Source: an uncultured Candidatus Saccharibacteria bacterium (GTDB lineage Bacteria; Patescibacteriota; UBA1384; XYA2-FULL-43-10). Taken from it: DNA of 64,000 nucleotides. Below are positions 24,337-32,467 of this stretch, piece by piece (the first letter of the stretch is position 1; every line of letters begins with the position of its first letter). Location of the stretch: positions 2,504-66,503 of the forward strand of contig CAYRRY010000001.1 in the NCBI GenBank assembly GCA_964426805.1, in the 5' to 3' direction. The notes beneath the pieces were generated by a model that saw only the letters and a program-made list of their open reading frames with translations, did no database searches and was not told the origin of the DNA. Made by a program: the position numbers and the translations under genes.

Positions 24337-24423
24337 TTGGTGCCAGAGGTGGGAGTCGAACCCACATCACGCGAGCGTGATACGATTTTGAGTCGTACGC
24401 GTATACCAATTCCGCCACTCTGG
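24337..24423 (-). tRNA. tRNA-Leu (anticodon CAA), long variable arm, CCA encoded
   Basis: Hand-folded. Acceptor GCCAGAG/CTCTGGC. Anticodon stem TACGA/TCGTA with loop CTCAAAA. Variable arm CACGC..GCGTG. T-arm GTGGG-TTCGACT-CCCAC. Confidence 0.8.
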
Positions 24424-24534
24424 CTAAATATCAAATAATGTATGGTTAATAACTGATAATTAAGAAACGATGTATTATTGACAATTTCAGCTAAAATTAT
24501 AGCAAATTTTACGTTCTTTGGAAAGTGCTAATAT

Positions 24535-24571: not shown

Positions 24572-24652
24572 AAAATTCATGATGTTGTGCGAATAAACTA
24601 TTTTAAAATCCTGGAAATCGGTATATAATTGATATATAAAAGGAGGGCGTAA

Positions 24653-26269
24653 ATGCCAGAGGTTTTCAATTTCAACACAAAGCGAACCAAGACGAAGCCT
24701 TTTGCTCTGATTATTCTAGACGGTTGGGGCGTAGCTCCTTCATGGGGTGGAAATGCGATAACGCTTGCAAAAACTAGTTATTTTGACGAACTTATTCGGA
24801 CTTATCCAAATACTACTCTCTCCGCCTCCGGACCAAGCGTTGGTCTTTCTGAAGGTTCCCCGGGAAATTCTGAAGCAGGTCACTTGAATATCGGTGCTGG
24901 CAGGATAGTACATCAAGATTTGCCCCTTATCAATCAAAAAATTGAAAGTGGCGAATTTTTTAATAACAAAACAATGAAGGCCTCTTTGGGGTATTTGAAG
25001 AAATATGGAGGTAAGCTTCATGTTATGGGCCTTCTTTCAAAATCTGGGACACATAGCCATCTGAATCACCTTTATGCTACTCTAAAGTTTTATAAGGAAA
25101 ACGGTGTTACGGATGCATATATTCATCTTTTTTCAGATGGACGTGATTCCGACCCCATGAGCGGGATTGAGATGATCGGAGAAGTACAGAAAAAGATTGA
25201 TGAGTTGGGAATAGGTCGTATTTCATCTATCATGGGTAGATTTTATGCTATGGACAGAGATAATCGTTGGGGACGCACCATACGAGCATACAACACACTT
25301 ACTAAAGGGGAAGCAGAGGTTGCTCAGAACGCAAACCAGGTTTTTTCCCATAGCTATAAGAGAGGCATAACGGACGAATTTATCGAGCCGAGGATTATTA
25401 CAAACAAAATTTCAAATTTTGAGAAGATAGTAGACAAAGATGTTGTTCTGTTATTCAATTTTCGCCCTGACAGAGTTAGGCAATTGACAAAAGCATTTTT
25501 GGCCACAGAGGTAAAACAATTTCCGGATAGAAAAAAACTCAAAAATATTATGATGGTTAGCTTTGTTACATACGAAAGAGAAAACCTCGGGGATAAGGTT
25601 TTTTACCCCGACCCTATTGAAAACCCTATAGCAAAAGTAATTTCCGACAAGGGTTACAAGCAACTTCACATGGCTGAAACAGAAAAATACCCACACGTCA
25701 CCTATTTTATGAACGGTGGCAACGAACAAGCCTATCCAGGAGAAACCAGAAAAATGATTCCGTCACCCAAGGTAAGAACTTACGATTACGCTCCGAAGAT
25801 GAGCGCAGAAAAACTCACAAAACAGCTGAACAGTTTCGTAAAACAGGGGAAGAATCATTTCTATATAGTCAACTATGCGAATCCCGACATGGTTGGCCAT
25901 ACAGGGAACTTGGAGGCAACGATACAAGCTATAAGCTATATAGATACATGTCTAAAATCACTCATACCTGAAATCTTGAAACAGGAAGGCACGGCTTTAA
26001 TATTTGCTGATCACGGAAACGCTGAACAGATGATTAATCCGCAAACTTCAGAACCAGATACGGAGCACACTACCAATCCCGTTCCATTTATTTTAGTAAA
26101 CGAGAAATTGAAAGGAAATGTCGTTCTTCAAAATAATGGCTCATTAACCAATATTGCGCCTACGGCACTTGAGCTTCTGGGAATCGATAAACCAAACGAG
26201 ATGTCTTCAAGGGAAAGTCTAATTCTTGCCAATCCTCGATTTGAACATAAAGGAATTCTAAAATTTTAA
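24653..26269 (+). CDS. gpmI: 2,3-bisphosphoglycerate-independent phosphoglycerate mutase
   Basis: ILDGWG, GNSEAGHLNIGAGR and ADHGN metal/catalytic motifs. 538 aa. Confidence 0.92.
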   Translation: MPEVFNFNTKRTKTKPFALIILDGWGVAPSWGGNAITLAKTSYFDELIRTYPNTTLSASGPSVGLSEGSPGNSEAGHLNIGAGRIVHQDLPLINQKIESGEFFNNKTMKASLGYLKKYGGKLHVMGLLSKSGTHSHLNHLYATLKFYKENGVTDAYIHLFSDGRDSDPMSGIEMIGEVQKKIDELGIGRISSIMGRFYAMDRDNRWGRTIRAYNTLTKGEAEVAQNANQVFSHSYKRGITDEFIEPRIITNKISNFEKIVDKDVVLLFNFRPDRVRQLTKAFLATEVKQFPDRKKLKNIMMVSFVTYERENLGDKVFYPDPIENPIAKVISDKGYKQLHMAETEKYPHVTYFMNGGNEQAYPGETRKMIPSPKVRTYDYAPKMSAEKLTKQLNSFVKQGKNHFYIVNYANPDMVGHTGNLEATIQAISYIDTCLKSLIPEILKQEGTALIFADHGNAEQMINPQTSEPDTEHTTNPVPFILVNEKLKGNVVLQNNGSLTNIAPTALELLGIDKPNEMSSRESLILANPRFEHKGILKF

Positions 26270-26270
26270 G

Positions 26271-27815
26271 ATGAATAAGTTGTCTAATTATCGCAAAAAA
26301 GTAGCCCTATTAGTTGTTGAGGGATTGTCGGCCAAGACAAAAAGAGAGGGCTCTCCCCTACTTCCTTCAAACTCGGGCAATATCGAGGTGCTTCTTTCGG
26401 GGTATGAAAAGAAGATTCTAAAAACTTTGGACCCAACAATTGATAGTAACATACTAGAAACAGACATTGTTTCGCTGTACAATACGTTCTCTTCTTCAAA
26501 ACGAGCTCTAAGTGAGGTTGCTAATTTTAAACATGATAAAAATGATTTCAAGAGTAAATTGGAAAAAATCAGTCACAACTGTAAAAATCACTCCTCTTCA
26601 ATGCATTTAGCCATGGTGTACTCTAAAAATCCAAAAGTATTTAACCAAAATATTTTCGACGAAATTATTGCTGGACTTAAGGAAATTGGGTTAAATAGGA
26701 TTTATCTTCATCTGTTTTGCGACTTCACTATGAAATCATCTGAAGTTAGAAATTTTGTTGAGCGATACAACAAGTTAGATGGAGCAAAGTTTCAGATTTC
26801 CTCAGTTTCGGGCACCTCATCCCTTCTGAGCCATAAGCAAAAAAATCAACTAGAAATATACAAATCGATGGTATTTGGAGCCAGTCATCAGATTATGGAT
26901 ATTTCACAGATTGATGATGGGGATTTTTCGCATCTACTCCCACACACGTTTATAAAAAATAGAAAACCGATTGGCATGATAAGCGATTTTGACACGATTC
27001 TATTTTTAAATTCAAGCTCTGAAATTTTCTTCGAACAGATTCATCTCTTAAATAAAAAAAGTAAATCTTTCCGTGGAGACAAAAACCTTTTTATGATAAA
27101 TACTGTATGTTTGACTAAAATTTATCGAAATATTGATGGCAAGGGAGTCGAATACCTAATTAGTAATATGCTTTACCAAAAAAATCTATTTTCAACTTTG
27201 TCTGAATATGGATTAAGCCAGATTAAAATATTTAATGCAGAAGATAGGGACCAGTATCTAGAAGGATATAATGGTTCCAACGAGATATTTGAAAACGAAG
27301 ATGTTGCGTTAATAGAGAGCGAAGGCAACCATGTCCTCTCCGCTCGTCACATCATACAAACATTTATTGAATCTATTGAAAATGATGAGCATGATCTTGT
27401 TTTTGCCTCAATGAACAGTTTAGTCAAATGTTCGTATGATACGGACTTAAAAGATTCGATATCTGTAGTCGACGAAATAAATCAAGCTATACCAGAGATA
27501 ATTAGAATATGCGCAAAAAATAAATTGACCTTTGTTTTTGCCTCGCCTTTTGGCGGTTCAGACTCCTTTTCCTCCGGCGACAAGCAAGGTCAAGAAAAGA
27601 ATTTTGAAAATATCAAACTAACCACTGTGCCTCTGGTGCTTGTAAATAACTTATTTAAAAAAGAGACTAGTAATCAGTTCATGATAAACAATTCCAATTT
27701 AATTGATATAATAAGTAGTAAGTCTAGTGTTTATGATTTTGCCCCGACTATTTTGGATTTATTTAATATTGAAAAGCCGGAAGGTTTTCAGGGAAGAAGC
27801 TTAACAAATGTCTAA
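26271..27815 (+). CDS. divergent iPGM-like paralog with metal-binding and catalytic motifs degenerated (putative pseudoenzyme or altered specificity)
   Basis: N- and C-terminal homology to gpmI (KVALLVVEGLS vs PFALIILDGWG; FAPTILDLFNIEKPEGFQGRS vs IAPTALELLGIDKPNEMSSRES). ADHGN is replaced by ASPFGG and the His of MVGHTG is lost. Confidence 0.6.
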   Translation: MNKLSNYRKKVALLVVEGLSAKTKREGSPLLPSNSGNIEVLLSGYEKKILKTLDPTIDSNILETDIVSLYNTFSSSKRALSEVANFKHDKNDFKSKLEKISHNCKNHSSSMHLAMVYSKNPKVFNQNIFDEIIAGLKEIGLNRIYLHLFCDFTMKSSEVRNFVERYNKLDGAKFQISSVSGTSSLLSHKQKNQLEIYKSMVFGASHQIMDISQIDDGDFSHLLPHTFIKNRKPIGMISDFDTILFLNSSSEIFFEQIHLLNKKSKSFRGDKNLFMINTVCLTKIYRNIDGKGVEYLISNMLYQKNLFSTLSEYGLSQIKIFNAEDRDQYLEGYNGSNEIFENEDVALIESEGNHVLSARHIIQTFIESIENDEHDLVFASMNSLVKCSYDTDLKDSISVVDEINQAIPEIIRICAKNKLTFVFASPFGGSDSFSSGDKQGQEKNFENIKLTTVPLVLVNNLFKKETSNQFMINNSNLIDIISSKSSVYDFAPTILDLFNIEKPEGFQGRSLTNV

Positions 27816-28374
27816 AAAAAGAGTAGAAATTGAGGTTTCGGCAAGGCATATCCATCTTGCTAAAGAAGATTTTGAAACACTTTTTGGCAATGACGCCGTT
27901 CTAGATGTTCGAAACTATCTATCTCAGCCAAATGAATTCGCTTCAAATAAAATTGTCGAGATTGTTGGCCCAGATTACGTTTTCGAGAAGGTTCGAATAC
28001 TTGGTCCATTCAGAAATTATAGTCAGGTAGAAATGTCAAAAACAGATACCTTGAAATCTGGCATAAATGCACCTTACAAAATTTCCGGAGACTTGCCGGG
28101 AGCCAGGGTTCGAGTAATCGGTCCCGAGGGAGAGTTTATAAAAGATATCGCAATAATCGCGAAAAGGCACATCCATTTGAGTCCAGCCGAGGCTCGAACA
28201 CTTAGGGTTCGATCAGGTCAGCACTTATCTGTTAGTATAGGCGGAGAAAGATCTGTAACTTTTGATAGATTTGAGGTTAGAGTTGGTGATAACTTCAAAA
28301 AGGCCTGTCACGTCGATACAGACGAAGGAAATGCGGCTGGAATTGATAAAAAATGTATAGGAACAATTATATGA
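27808..28374 (+). CDS. pduL: phosphate acyltransferase PduL-like (phosphotransacetylase/propanoyltransferase)
   Basis: Two PduL repeats with SARHIHL and KRHIHL motifs. Overlaps ackA by ATGA. Confidence 0.8.
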   Translation: MSKKRVEIEVSARHIHLAKEDFETLFGNDAVLDVRNYLSQPNEFASNKIVEIVGPDYVFEKVRILGPFRNYSQVEMSKTDTLKSGINAPYKISGDLPGARVRVIGPEGEFIKDIAIIAKRHIHLSPAEARTLRVRSGQHLSVSIGGERSVTFDRFEVRVGDNFKKACHVDTDEGNAAGIDKKCIGTII

Positions 28375-29438
28375 TACTAGTTATTAACACAGGTTCGTCT
28401 TCCATAAAGACTAAGCTTTTTAAACGGCACAAGGGTGTATTGATTGAAGTTTCTGCATTTTCCTCTGCTGGTATATCATCGAAGAACATCTCAAATTTTA
28501 GCCGAGCAACAACTTCTTTGTTTCGAGAAAATAATCTGGATAAAAAAGATATTAAAAAAGTTGCTTATAGAATAGTCCACGGTGGCGATGAGGGGAAAAA
28601 CAAATCGACAATTGACGTTAATGTCGAGAAATTGATAGAAAAATACAATCACCTATCTCCGAACCACAACCCATACGCCCTGGCTGTAATTCGTCAAACA
28701 AAGAAATTATTGAAAGATGCTAAGCACTACGCTTTTTTCGACACTGCATATTTTTCAAGCATTCCAGATGAGAACAAGCTCTTTCCCTTACCAAAGCTTA
28801 TCAACCACGGAATAGAGATAAAAAAATACGGTTTTCATGGGCTTTCACATCAATATATATATGAGAAAGGTGCATCTGGAAAAAAGGCCATTACTGTTCA
28901 CCTCGGAGCTGGTTGTTCTATCGCTGCAATAAACAGGGAAGGCCCGCAAAACACAACTATGGGTTCCACTCCTCTCGGTGGACTTGTTATGCTTTCGCGA
29001 CCTGGAGATCTAGATCCTGGTGTAGTTTTAGAATATGCCCAAAAATATGGTTACAAAAAAAGCTTGGACGTTCTAGCCAAAAAATCAGGCCTCCTCTCTA
29101 TTACAAATAAAACTTCCAGCATGCTCGATATTATTTACCAAGCTTTTGGGTATATAGAAGATGATAAATCTATGTTGAGTCGTGGATTGCCAACGGACGT
29201 TGCTTCCACAAAAAAAGCAGAGATCGCAATTAGCAAGTTTGTTAGGTCAATCCAGAAACACATTTGCGAATATTATATAGAACTCGGCGGATGCGATCAT
29301 TTGATTTTTAGCGGTCGAATCGGCACTGGTTCGAAGAAGATACGAAGTTTAATTACAAAAGATATAAAGTTTTTAGATATTAAAAATATTGAAGCTATTA
29401 CAACAGATGAAGAAAAGATGATGGCCTCGTATCTTTAA
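28371..29438 (+). CDS. ackA: acetate/propionate kinase (start at Met 28371; the track ORF begins earlier)
   Basis: ILVINTGSSSIK, HLGAGCSIAAI and GSTPLGGLVMLSRPGDLDP motifs of the ASKHA acetate kinase family. Confidence 0.85.
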   Translation: MILVINTGSSSIKTKLFKRHKGVLIEVSAFSSAGISSKNISNFSRATTSLFRENNLDKKDIKKVAYRIVHGGDEGKNKSTIDVNVEKLIEKYNHLSPNHNPYALAVIRQTKKLLKDAKHYAFFDTAYFSSIPDENKLFPLPKLINHGIEIKKYGFHGLSHQYIYEKGASGKKAITVHLGAGCSIAAINREGPQNTTMGSTPLGGLVMLSRPGDLDPGVVLEYAQKYGYKKSLDVLAKKSGLLSITNKTSSMLDIIYQAFGYIEDDKSMLSRGLPTDVASTKKAEIAISKFVRSIQKHICEYYIELGGCDHLIFSGRIGTGSKKIRSLITKDIKFLDIKNIEAITTDEEKMMASYL

Positions 29439-29469: not shown

Positions 29470-30507
29470 ATGACAAAAAAACATTCAAAACTTGTTACTG
29501 GGAATCAAGCGGCAGTTTTGGGAGCTTTAGCGGGCGGTGCTGAAGCTATGTTTGGCTATCCCATAACTCCAGCTACTGAAATTCTCCAAGGATGGATTGA
29601 AAAAGCTCAAAGCGACAAATCTTTGCACTTTTTGCAAACTGAAGATGAAACTTCGGCTGGTTTCGCTGTTTGCGGAGCGCTACTAAACGGCACGAAGGCT
29701 TTTACAGCTTCTGCTGGTCCCGGTCATGTCCTGATGCAGGACCCCGTGTCCATGGCGGAAAATGTTCGGCTTCCCTTCGTTGGGATAATGATGCAAAGAG
29801 GCGGACCATCCACAGGAACGGTTAATTTTTCTCAACAGGAAGTAAACCTTGCTTCCTTCGGTGGTAACGGTGAGGGGTTAAGAATTGTTTATTCGGCTTC
29901 AACTGTTCAGGAAATGTACGACTTGTCAGCAAAGATATTTAATACAGCCTGGAAATACATGTTCCCCACTTTTCTACTTGGTGACGGTTATATCGGGAAA
30001 ATGGAGTCTGAGATAGGTCTAACAAAAAAAGTGAACCCAATAAGTTCGAAGAAACTTCTTAGAGAACAAAAAACACCGACACACTTGAAGAACTGCTACT
30101 CATCCGAGGAAGAGCTAGCCGAGATTTTGAAAGAAAATATCTATGAATGGAACAAGAACAAGAGCGTGATTGCTGAAAGCGAGAAATATCGTACAGAGGA
30201 CGCAAAAGAGATCATTGTTGCTCATGGTCTTGTGGCCTCTGCAGCAAAAGAAGCCGTGGATATGATGCGAAATCATGGCAGAAAAATTGGCCTCTTCAGG
30301 GCTATCACAGTTCATCCGCTAGACACACTGCCTCTCTCAAATTTAGCCAAGAAGGTAAAAAGGATTCATCTTATCGAGGCTTCGCAAAACCAATTTTCAA
30401 GAATAGTTAAATACGAACTTTACGGAGAAACGACAGATATCGTTGAGCATTCCAAGCCGGCAGAGGGATTTTCACCTTCGGAGATAATCGATTTAATACG
30501 AGATTAA
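29470..30507 (+). CDS. 2-oxoacid:ferredoxin oxidoreductase alpha subunit (PorA/KorA-type)
   Basis: GNQAAVLGALAGG, YPITPATEI and FTASAGPGHVLMQD motifs. Confidence 0.85.
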   Translation: MTKKHSKLVTGNQAAVLGALAGGAEAMFGYPITPATEILQGWIEKAQSDKSLHFLQTEDETSAGFAVCGALLNGTKAFTASAGPGHVLMQDPVSMAENVRLPFVGIMMQRGGPSTGTVNFSQQEVNLASFGGNGEGLRIVYSASTVQEMYDLSAKIFNTAWKYMFPTFLLGDGYIGKMESEIGLTKKVNPISSKKLLREQKTPTHLKNCYSSEEELAEILKENIYEWNKNKSVIAESEKYRTEDAKEIIVAHGLVASAAKEAVDMMRNHGRKIGLFRAITVHPLDTLPLSNLAKKVKRIHLIEASQNQFSRIVKYELYGETTDIVEHSKPAEGFSPSEIIDLIRD

Positions 30508-30558: not shown

Positions 30559-31272
30559 ATGGATCAGATTATGCCAACAAGTTGGTACGCGAAAAGTAAG
30601 CCTCATTTTTTCTGTGGAGGTTGTGGTCACGGTATTACCTTGAAACAACTCGGGTATGCTATAGACGATTTGAAAATTCAGGAAGATATCGTATTTGGTA
30701 TTGATATCGGCTGTTCCCTGCTAGCTTGGGATTTCTTTGCTTGCGATACGATCCAAACCCATCATGGACGCACTACTCCTGTTATGGTTGGCTATAAGAT
30801 GACAAAGCCCTCGAAAATTGCGCTAGCCTATATGGGCGATGGCGGTGGATATGCTATTGGTCTGCAGTCACTACTTCACGCTGCTTTTCGAAATGATCCT
30901 ATAACAGCTATTTTAGTTAACAACGAAAACTATGCCATGACAGGTGGACAAATGGCTCCAACAACTGAATCAGGAGTAAAAACAACAACATCACCCAATG
31001 GAAAACCAATAGAGTTCGGCCCTGGTTTCAAAGGGCCTGAAACAGTGAGAGGGGTTGCTAATAAAGATGCCTATGTTGCTCGTGCTTCTGTTTCTAATCC
31101 AGTAGTACTTCGGAATACCTTGAAAAAAGCTATTGAAACGCAGGCTGAAAAGAATAATTTCTCTTTCGTTGAAATCTTGTCCGTATGCCCTACTAATTGG
31201 AAGACATCGGCAAAAGAATCGCTAGAACGTGTTAAAGATATGGAAAAGTATTATCCTTTGGGAGAGATATAA
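30559..31272 (+). CDS. 2-oxoacid:ferredoxin oxidoreductase beta subunit (TPP-binding)
   Basis: FCGGCGHG and GDGGGYAIG...NENYAMTGGQ TPP-binding motif. Confidence 0.85.
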   Translation: MDQIMPTSWYAKSKPHFFCGGCGHGITLKQLGYAIDDLKIQEDIVFGIDIGCSLLAWDFFACDTIQTHHGRTTPVMVGYKMTKPSKIALAYMGDGGGYAIGLQSLLHAAFRNDPITAILVNNENYAMTGGQMAPTTESGVKTTTSPNGKPIEFGPGFKGPETVRGVANKDAYVARASVSNPVVLRNTLKKAIETQAEKNNFSFVEILSVCPTNWKTSAKESLERVKDMEKYYPLGEI

Positions 31273-31303
31273 ACTTTTATATTAATATCGATTAGGAGTT
31301 ATT

Positions 31304-31630
31304 ATGAATGAAGGAGAACGAGGGGCACCTGCTGACGCAGAGGATTGGACCGCGCCAAAGGATGAGGTCGAAACTAATGATGACATAAGACCGATTGAGA
31401 TGAGCGAAAAAGTTAGAGATAGTTGGACGGGCTTCCATTCGAATTGGATGGACGGTGAAACCGTGTCGTGTGATCAGCTAATCACCTATGTTAAAGATAA
31501 TCTAAATACTTCTGAGCCAGGCATCGGAGAAATGAATGCTGTAATTGATTCACTTGTTTCTGAACACAAAGATTGGTTTATGCCTGAGTTTTGGACTGAA
31601 CACGAGAAAGGCAGAGATAAAGCTGCATAA
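31304..31630 (+). CDS. small acidic hypothetical protein embedded in the OFOR operon
   Basis: 108-aa ORF with own ATG between beta and gamma-delta genes. No recognisable domain. Confidence 0.4.
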   Translation: MNEGERGAPADAEDWTAPKDEVETNDDIRPIEMSEKVRDSWTGFHSNWMDGETVSCDQLITYVKDNLNTSEPGIGEMNAVIDSLVSEHKDWFMPEFWTEHEKGRDKAA

Positions 31631-31636
31631 ATTCTT

Positions 31637-32467
31637 ATGAAAAATTGGTCAAACAAAAAAGTAAAATTGATTTTATCCGGCGAAGGTGGTCAGGGAATTC
31701 AAACTATCGCCAAAGCATTAGTCGCAATGGCAGTGGGGCAGGGATTAAAAGTCTCGTATCTGCCCTCTTTTGGCGTGGAGCAAAGAGGGACTCCCTCAAT
31801 TGCCTATGTAATTATTTCTGGCTCGGATATCAATTATCCAAGATTTGAAGAAGCAGATATTGTGATGGCACTTGCCAACAGAGCCGTTCCAAAAGTAAAT
31901 CATTTTATCACACCAAATACAGATGTTCTTTTCGACTCGTCTGTTATTAAACCAAATACTTTTACCCGTATGGCTGTTCACAAACTTGGAATTCCAGCAA
32001 CAGCACTATCGCATGAAAAATTTAATCCTCGCTCATACAATGTGTTAATGTATGGCGTTTTGGTTAATATGTTAAAGCTTGATTCAAGCCAATCGTGGAA
32101 AGCAATTAAAAATCAACTTAAAGACAAATTTAAAACCAAGAAGATTGAGGACGACAATAAAAATGCGTACGAATTTGGATACGAAGCCGTATTGGAAAAA
32201 AAGAGATTTTCATCCCCCACCTTCGAAACTAAATCAACGATAAATTACTATAAGAGCAAAGACAAAAAAGGAACCATTAACCCCTCTCTCTGCAAAGGTT
32301 GTGGTTTGTGCATTGAAAAATGCCCTACTGGGGCTCTTTCTTTTGGTACTGATTTGGGAGTATTTGGCACTCCTGTACCGGTGGTTGATCTAAACAAATG
32401 TATTGGTTGTGGTCTCTGCCATCAAATCTGCCCAGACGGAGCGATATTTATAGAAAAAAACAAATAG
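31637..32467 (+). CDS. 2-oxoacid:ferredoxin oxidoreductase gamma subunit fused to delta (2x[4Fe-4S] ferredoxin) domain
   Basis: Gamma-like N-terminus (ILSGEGGQGIQT). C-terminal CKGCGLCIEKCP and CIGCGLCHQICP clusters. Confidence 0.8.
   Translation: MKNWSNKKVKLILSGEGGQGIQTIAKALVAMAVGQGLKVSYLPSFGVEQRGTPSIAYVIISGSDINYPRFEEADIVMALANRAVPKVNHFITPNTDVLFDSSVIKPNTFTRMAVHKLGIPATALSHEKFNPRSYNVLMYGVLVNMLKLDSSQSWKAIKNQLKDKFKTKKIEDDNKNAYEFGYEAVLEKKRFSSPTFETKSTINYYKSKDKKGTINPSLCKGCGLCIEKCPTGALSFGTDLGVFGTPVPVVDLNKCIGCGLCHQICPDGAIFIEKNK

Follow-up and report, generated by a model that had tools for sequence, protein, structure and literature searches.

A 64,000-nucleotide (nt) stretch of contig CAYRRY010000001.1 from an uncultured Candidatus Saccharibacteria bacterium, here called the window, carries a 514-amino-acid (aa) open reading frame (ORF) with an ATG start at positions 26271–27815 of the forward strand, between pduL and the cofactor-independent phosphoglycerate mutase (iPGM) gene gpmI. 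An earlier note on this DNA had described the ORF, which we call X, as a degenerate iPGM paralog and putative pseudoenzyme. This description holds: X retains none of the seven metal/nucleophile residues and none of the nine substrate-binding residues of the enzyme, and it has evolved under purifying selection. We consider it very probable that selection maintains X as a protein devoid of iPGM catalysis. Beyond the earlier note, we found that X is not a one-off: it stands at the far end of a rapidly evolving family whose members, within one clade of Patescibacteria, always follow an intact gpmI. As a whole, we read X as a selected pseudoenzyme that would be co-produced with GpmI and serve as a non-catalytic accessory or regulatory partner; we put this forward tentatively, with a confidence slightly short of even.

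X and iPGM are homologous over the full length, not only at both termini as had been thought. BLASTP aligned X with the GpmI of the window over 429 columns at 21% identity (E 2e-7), phmmer matched it to the Geobacillus stearothermophilus iPGM (PDB 1EJJ; residues 8–447, E 2.2e-14), and hhalign related the profiles of the X and GpmI families with 98.4% probability over 462 columns (20% identity). Among curated models only the superfamily-level Pfam model Metalloenzyme is passed (34.9 bits, cut-off 24.3), whereas X stays below the cut-offs of iPGM_N (20.4 versus 27 bits) and, by far, of TIGR01307 (53 versus 330.65 bits); no NCBIfam model covers it. A structure predicted with AlphaFold2 (AF2) from a 10-sequence alignment (mean predicted local distance difference test score 80.1, predicted template modelling score 0.79) shows the iPGM architecture of an alkaline-phosphatase-like domain with an inserted phosphotransferase domain. 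The 22 best PDB matches of this model in Foldseek are all iPGMs, headed by the closed, substrate-bound structures 1EJJ and 1O98 (1EJJ: template modelling (TM) score 0.73, E 2.7e-32). X is hence confirmed as a full-length iPGM homolog with the two-domain fold retained. It falls into the same length class as iPGM (GpmI/GpmM; PF01676 plus PF06415) and shares with it the strands LH and IH, the Asp of DGRD, the motif DxD..FxN and the APTILxL helix at the C-terminus. The core fold of the phosphatase domain is also common to DeoB (phosphopentomutase) and ApgM (archaeal-type iPGM), with Foldseek E values of ~1e-8 to 1e-9, but these active metalloenzymes have another cap domain and reach TM scores of only ~0.4, and X is clearly derived from the bacterial-type iPGM.

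The catalytic residues were mapped in three alignments (MAFFT, HMMER and hhalign) using the established metal/nucleophile and substrate residue set of the G. stearothermophilus enzyme (1EJJ); the numbering of D12 was verified against the phmmer alignment of X with 1EJJ. The counts of 0/7 and 0/9 apply to X and equally to all five members of its tight family. In the two-Mn2+ site, formed by D12, D403, H407, D444, H445 and H462, no ligand is kept. The sole conservative replacement is E17 for D12 (LDG to VEG; codon 26319–26321), a glutamate that is invariant in the tight family. Residues 380–391, SMNSLVKCSYDT (27408–27443), stand in place of NYANPDMVGHTG, with V385 for D403 and Y389 for H407. In residues 424–431, ASPFGGSD (27540–27563), which take the place of ADHGNAE, D444 has become P426 and H445 has become F427, and S-P-F is invariant in the tight family. 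The earlier note had thus correctly seen that ADHGN was replaced and that the His of MVGHTG was lost; D403 is lost with it. Residues 444–450, NFENIKL (27600–27620), replace a (T)EHT(T) segment, and H462 corresponds to I448 or K449 depending on the alignment. The loop of the nucleophile Ser62, GNSE(V/A)GH, which had been described as degenerated, is missing: in hhalign it lies within a deletion of ~18 residues (X residues 55–70; 26433–26480), and although MAFFT and HMMER differ on the residue-level match here, no family member has a GNSE-like motif, as a functional iPGM should. The alignments disagree by about a residue at the Ser loop and at D403, but none of them puts Asp, His or a GNSE-like Ser at a ligand position; the profile–profile alignment, which had been suggested as a check, therefore shows neither the Ser loop nor any Mn ligand retained. 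All nine substrate residues (H66, H123, R153, D154, R185, R191, R261, R264 and K336) are replaced as well. Lacking the Ser loop, the His and Asp metal ligands and the Arg, Lys and His residues that bind phosphoglycerate, X should be incapable of iPGM (alkaline-phosphatase-type) chemistry. The adjacent GpmI (538 aa; 24653–26269, forward strand) is catalytically intact, with 7/7 and 9/9 residues, 600.7 bits with TIGR01307, 245.8 bits with Metalloenzyme and 242.5 bits with iPGM_N.

A search of 5.8 billion clusters returned four close relatives of X, of 72, 61, 55 and 44% identity and 513–514 aa each, all of them in the gene order gpmI-X-pduL-ackA-porABG; the next matches were true iPGMs at 20–24% identity. 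In codon alignments of six loci the frame of 513–514 codons is free of stops and frameshifts and the start is preserved, down to 44% identity; in the window it amounts to 514 open codons in DNA of ~35% G+C, a length kept in the five other loci, which goes beyond what chance would produce. Synonymous sites are saturated (proportion of synonymous differences, pS, 0.78–0.84), while the corresponding nonsynonymous proportion, pN, runs from 0.154 in the closest pair to 0.39 in the farthest. As pN and pS should be about equal under neutrality, the far lower pN places X under purifying selection. Two contigs with an identical X protein differ at synonymous sites only. For the same pairs gpmI has a pN of 0.083–0.148, and X evolves ~2–3.3 times faster than GpmI (dN 0.172 versus 0.088 and 0.549 versus 0.165). 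The GTDB representatives gave no match to the X-family profile and a scan of Joint Genome Institute (JGI) metagenomes gave the L004 contig only, so that an unsaturated dN/dS was not obtainable. Decay into a pseudogene, or a frameshift, which the earlier note had named as one finding that would speak against it, is ruled out by the intact frame in six loci together with a pN far below pS. Judged from its sequence, X shows what is expected of a pseudoenzyme, namely homology and a shared fold, loss of essential residues and purifying selection.

The family was extended by searching 1.84 billion representatives with a five-member X profile (hmmsearch), which yielded 676 matches, 12 of them at E < 1e-30; beyond the tight family they form a graded series of full-length proteins. 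The best 157 of the 676 matches were classed by their catalytic columns, and among the 145 full-length clusters 63 are dead (at most 2/7 metal ligands), 12 keep the metal site but have lost substrate-binding residues, 27 are intermediate and 43 intact. Genomic context was looked up for seven non-intact representatives (proteins are numbered P, loci L). Five of these have 0/7 metal ligands: P0020 (L007; pgi-gpmI-X-pduL-ackA-porABG, then a third intact iPGM), P0013 (L092; sortase-GIY-YIG-gpmI-X-pduL-ackA-porABG), P0102 (L095; pgi-gpmI-X-ACD-porABG), P0140 (L096; gpmI-X) and P0055 (L094), whose protein is identical to that of L011 and which was not counted as independent. P0015 (L089; gpmI-X-pduL) has 7/7 metal ligands and 3/9 substrate residues, and P0012 (L090) has 6/7, with Ser changed to Gln, in the order MreB-MurA-orf-sortase-gpmI-X-pduL, a synteny as in the window. 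A GpmI-anchored GTDB scan added six species representatives (L009–L014; GpmI 50–56% identical to that of the window) with a degenerate copy directly after GpmI, followed by pduL-ackA-por in L009 and L013, by ACD-por in L014 (Berkelbacteria) and by unrelated genes in L010 and L012.

Taken together, X lies directly after a catalytically intact iPGM gene in 16/16 independent loci with upstream DNA (window, L001, L003, L004, L007, L009–L014, L089, L090, L092, L095 and L096), and its position is preserved in ~17 lineages whose GpmIs are only ~50% identical. The gpmI/X junctions mostly measure −8 to +16 nt, with +1, 0, −8, +2 and +6 types among related loci. On the downstream side X overlaps pduL by 8–11 nt in six loci (window, L001, L003, L004, L006 and L007); in five others (L009, L013, L089, L090 and L092) the X stop is no more than 12 nt from the pduL start. 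The invariant neighbour of X is gpmI, and the acetate branch is frequent but replaceable. Where ACD (a single ADP-forming acetyl-CoA synthetase with CoA_binding, Succ_CoA_lig and ATP-grasp_5 domains) occupies the operon position of pduL-ackA, as in the Berkelbacteria-like L014 (13028–15031) and in another lineage (L095:6518–8512), the acetate/ATP step after X has been exchanged for a non-orthologous one.

The copies found in this slot span the whole range from an intact metal site (P0015, 7/7) through loss of the Ser (P0012, 6/7) to loss of everything (P0013, window). Substrate residues of the transferase domain are lost in every same-slot copy examined (P0015 keeps 3/9), the metal site in some lineages only. 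Since the same slot is held by copies with and without the metal site, this site appears dispensable for whatever is selected. The combination of 7/7 metal/nucleophile with 2–3/9 phosphoglycerate residues occurs in P0015 (L089:1771–3333), P0016, P0022, P0035 and P0082, of which at least P0015 occupies the X slot; such proteins may be active phosphotransferases or phosphatases with another substrate.

Nearly every position conserved in the wide X group is structural and also found in iPGM; these positions belong to Gly and Pro residues, the strands LH and IH, the Asp of DGRD, DxD..FxN and the APTIL helix at the C-terminus. Positions specific to X are few and mostly hydrophobic or Ser (S110, L148, F240, L384, S425 and K484), and neither a new conserved active site nor an X-specific set of polar residues was found across this group. 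The structural nature of the conserved positions, the small number of X-specific ones, the equal divergence of both domains and the dispensable metal site favour a non-catalytic role. Of the three functions that the earlier note had offered (regulatory subunit, scaffold, enzyme with different phospho-sugar specificity), the last is the least supported, since the X family shows no conserved set of polar residues.

Arrangements of iPGM genes were counted in the 80 best GTDB matches to the GpmI of the window. A single iPGM gene is present in 32 of them, chiefly Clostridia, Deltaproteobacteria and the like; in 42, two intact iPGM genes abut or overlap, each copy with 16/16 catalytic residues, and six carry gpmI and X. 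The intact pairs (within L016–L088; for example L045:8448–11581, L040:8375–11572 and L062:8364–11593) stem from records titled Magasanik-, Kerfeld-, Falkow-, Uhr- and Parcubacteria, ‘Patescibacteria group’ and ‘binchicken’ metagenome-assembled genomes (MAGs) with doubtful labels. Patescibacteria, also known as Candidate Phyla Radiation (CPR), are the nearest named genomes, and GTDB has no representative close to the window. Pairs such as those of Kerfeldbacteria (L045) and Magasanikbacteria (L040, L062) resemble gpmI-X in being abutting or overlapping genes of the iPGM family, and that of L045 likewise precedes pduL-ackA-por. Unlike gpmI-X, they keep all 16 catalytic residues in both copies, and their extra copy is the upstream one, which falls into a separate clade and is marked by indels of its own.

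A neighbour-joining tree, again an analysis that had been suggested for the paralog, resolves three groups: canonical iPGMs, comprising the clade of the window GpmI together with the downstream member of each intact pair; a distinct clade (U) of the upstream members; and X, set apart from both on long branches. The U clade has diagnostic indels that X lacks, which points to a separate duplication of a canonical-type gene. Profile scores of X are slightly higher against canonical models and lowest against the clade of its own neighbour, although typing by hidden Markov models alone is ambiguous. Judging from tree, indels and profile scores, X goes back to an old duplication, separate from that of the intact pairs, of a gene of the canonical type. 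Two other origins were rejected: a recent duplication of the adjacent gpmI, given the lowest score against the profile of that clade and an identity of 15–22%, and descent from the CPR-specific U clade, given the missing U insertions and deletions and the slightly higher canonical-profile scores.

Some further observations concern these iPGM genes. A third intact iPGM gene ends the gpmI-X-pduL-ackA-porABG operon in two lineages (L007:9089–10720 and L013:17262–18875) and groups with L082 pos1 rather than with the window-type GpmI or the U clade. P0117 (934 aa) is an intact iPGM (16/16 residues) with a fusion partner of ~400 aa. The records styled ‘MAG TPA_asm ... binchicken’ and titled ‘uncultured Gammaproteobacteria bacterium’ or, in some cases, ‘Candidatus Saccharibacteria’ (L023, L025, L026, L037, L039, L041, L054, L058, L064, L072, L074, L085, L087 and L088) sit among Magasanikbacteria and Parcubacteria in the iPGM tree and share the tandem-iPGM layout, and their organism labels look unreliable.

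After this description of the family, we considered how X might act. In the proposed mechanism, X would descend from a canonical-type iPGM, with the fold kept and catalysis lost, and would be made from the GpmI transcript directly after GpmI, probably by coupled translation. It would then bind the active GpmI and modulate or stabilise it, at the entry of the operon gpmI-X-pduL-ackA-porABG that would lead from lower glycolysis to acetate and ATP. The model for such a role is the S-adenosylmethionine decarboxylase prozyme of trypanosomatids, a dead paralog that acts as activator or regulator. Like the prozyme, X would be a dead paralog retained under selection beside an active one; its co-occurrence with that paralog is obligate (16/16), and the spacing of the genes suggests co-transcription. 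Prozymes are eukaryotic proteins encoded outside operons; the likeness is one of mechanism and implies no family relationship. GpmI is the suggested partner because the gpmI-X pair stays invariant when the downstream genes change and because abutting iPGM paralog pairs are a habit of these lineages; with two intact abutting genes in 42/80 matches, such pairs look as if they habitually co-operate.

Several points weigh against a partnership with GpmI. Characterised bacterial iPGMs are, to our knowledge, described as monomers, and we know of no heteromer in the family. X copies of different lineages share 15–28% identity while the GpmIs share 49–65%, no conserved surface patch was identified on X, and with only five close family members the conservation of single residues has little power. 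The two domains have diverged equally, neither being preferentially conserved, an observation that was counted above in favour of a non-catalytic role. Tight joining of pduL or ACD to X in 13/15 loci with a known downstream gene means, moreover, that adjacency alone does not single out GpmI. In view of these points we regard action of X through GpmI as plausible yet somewhat more doubtful than not. A further-reaching version, which we think unlikely, is that iPGM of Patescibacteria is normally a paralogous subunit pair, and that in the clade of the window one of the two has turned into a dead prozyme, which would still be needed to activate, stabilise or gate GpmI and would thereby control carbon flow from 3-phosphoglycerate into the acetate/ATP branch. 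If true, this would explain why tandem iPGM genes are so common in minimal genomes; it would also be the first case of a heteromer among iPGMs and, in bacteria, the first of a pseudoenzyme regulating a core step of glycolysis.

Alternatively, X could serve the acetate/ATP branch as a scaffold or partner of PduL/AckA or ACD, possibly also of the 2-oxoacid:ferredoxin oxidoreductase (POR), for example by tethering or by coupling expression or assembly. The tight junctions between X and its downstream genes, with overlaps in six loci and spacings within 12 nt in five, are in line with this, as is the position of X ahead of the acetate-forming step in 13/15 loci, where the functionally equivalent ACD often follows when pduL-ackA is absent (L014, L095). 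However, L010 and L012 keep gpmI-X and continue with unrelated genes (a 2′,5′-RNA ligase family gene and LeuRS), the folds of PduL/AckA and ACD are unrelated, which makes a single binding partner unlikely, and in the Kerfeldbacteria locus L045 (iPGM-iPGM-pduL-ackA-por) both iPGMs are intact and X is absent. We therefore judge this alternative to be improbable.

A similarly small chance is given to X being a neo-functionalised enzyme or small-molecule binder with a new site, perhaps a glycolytic sensor or the missing step from 2-phosphoglycerate to pyruvate where enolase and pyruvate kinase are patchy. Such patchiness has been described in CPR, and enolase has been reported missing in TM7 genomes (PMC7304191, PMC3812714). 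The operon runs from GpmI to POR/PduL/AckA without enolase or pyruvate kinase, and signature motifs of enolase, pyruvate kinase, PPDK, GAPDH, PGK and TPI were all absent from the 64-kb window, but this absence says nothing about the genome. The many invariant polar residues in the tight family would suit a new site, and the relatives with 7/7 metal ligands and 2–3/9 substrate residues resemble a substrate switch; some same-slot relatives with a metal site, such as P0015, may still be enzymes. For X itself, no specific polar constellation is conserved in the wider group, and the metal site was lost independently and to differing degrees in the same slot, which would be unexpected for a conserved catalyst. 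An identity of 15–28% between orthologous-slot copies is also unusually low for an enzyme of central metabolism.

It is very improbable that X is a non-functional remnant, a slowly decaying gpmI duplicate: the loss of all catalytic residues, the 2–3-fold faster evolution and the rarity of the tight family (four relatives in 5.8 billion clusters, no GTDB representative, one JGI contig) would fit, but pS is saturated at ~0.8 with pN at 0.15–0.39, frame, length and start are preserved in six loci and the position in ~17 lineages, AF2 predicts a well-packed iPGM fold, and a dead gene of 1.5 kb would not persist in the small, gene-dense genomes of CPR. Equally little credence is due to a still (weakly) active iPGM or phosphatase using substituted ligands (E17, other Asp, Glu or Ser). 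In its favour are the conservative change of D12 to Glu and an uncertain Ser-loop alignment, with a conserved Ser (S68) close by in the tight family. Against it, of the other six ligands five have become V/L, Y/S, P, F and I/K, which are incapable of metal coordination; none of the nine residues that bind phosphoglycerate is kept, the profile–profile alignment places the Ser loop in a deletion, and TIGR01307 gives 53 bits against a cut-off of 330.65.

The fold and ancestry of X are those of a textbook enzyme, and the pseudoenzyme concept is established. Genomes of CPR/Patescibacteria measure ~1 Mb and retain hardly anything that they can do without; nevertheless an entire clade devotes 1.5 kb to an inactive duplicate of a glycolytic enzyme immediately behind the active gene, and most other Patescibacteria lineages have two live iPGM copies side by side. 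In the open-access literature we found no description of a degenerate or dead iPGM paralog or of tandem iPGM pairs in CPR, an absence that is not proof. A systematic survey reported that iPGM paralogs are rare (4/702 genomes) and that phosphoglycerate mutase paralogs go with larger genomes, and the iPGM pattern of CPR contradicts both points (PMC2964296). If X is a partner of GpmI, there would be unsuspected regulation or quaternary structure at the step between 3-phosphoglycerate and 2-phosphoglycerate, and X would be a clean operon-encoded case of a bacterial pseudoenzyme, with a natural series from metal-site-intact to dead copies in one slot. The dead copies also score above the Pfam cut-off for Metalloenzyme, and metabolic reconstructions of CPR may mistake them for phosphoglycerate mutases; among the matches, one true iPGM carried the source name iPGM.

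The genes around X are all on the forward strand unless stated otherwise. X had been assigned to a four-gene operon gpmI/X/pduL/ackA; this order was found, but the unit does not end there and continues through porA, porB, a 108-aa ORF and porG to position 32467. Within this co-directional cluster gaps are ≤51 nt, except where the 108-aa ORF intervenes between porB and porG. As the earlier note had stated, X starts 1 nt after gpmI: the stop TAA (26267–26269) and the ATG at 26271 form the junction TAA-g-ATG (26267–26273), from which we infer coupling of the termination-reinitiation type. The two overlaps that it had reported further downstream are likewise present. The X stop TAA (27813–27815) sits within the start of pduL, whose ATG lies in the 8-nt overlap ATGTCTAA (27808–27815), and pduL and ackA overlap by 22 nt. 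The first of these encodes a PduL-type phosphotransacylase of 188 aa (27808–28374; Pfam PTAC, 196.1 bits) and the second a short form of acetate kinase of 361 aa (28353–29438; Pfam Acetate_kinase, 205.6 bits, model positions 2–353 of 392). They are followed by genes for a porA-like 2-oxoacid:ferredoxin oxidoreductase alpha subunit (29470–30507; Pfam POR_N and PFOR_II), a porB-like TPP-binding beta subunit (30559–31272; Pfam TPP_enzyme_C) and, as the last gene of the cluster, a porG-like gamma subunit fused to a 2x[4Fe-4S] ferredoxin (delta) domain (31637–32467; Pfam POR and Fer4 families). A weak positional candidate for a sigma-70-like promoter, TTTAAA-16-TATAAT, is located ~24 nt 5′ of gpmI (24602–24629); the promoter scan of the region found 24 such sites against a shuffled mean of 24.4, and the terminator scan likewise gave no excess over shuffled expectation.

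Minor features of the cluster and its surroundings were also recorded. AckA is short across the clade (351–365 aa) and appears to be without the usual C-terminal ~40 residues; at L006:2583–3655 ackA is split into two ORFs (147 and 195 aa), possibly by a frameshift or an assembly error. The acidic 108-aa ORF (31304–31630) has no Pfam match and no counterpart in relatives, where the gap between porB and porG is 37 nt (L001) or 4 nt (L004), and GC skew nearby is unusually high (0.227 at 31000–31499); the ORF appears to have been inserted into the por cluster in this lineage only. An Rfam scan of the window detected two tRNAs and no rRNA. Upstream, a tRNA-Leu(CAA) gene on the reverse strand (24338–24424) lies between the sortase gene and gpmI, and in relatives the sortase–gpmI interval holds a small GIY-YIG endonuclease ORF (L001:5804–5998; L092:3875–4198), which suggests that the spot just 5′ of the operon is variable or mobile.

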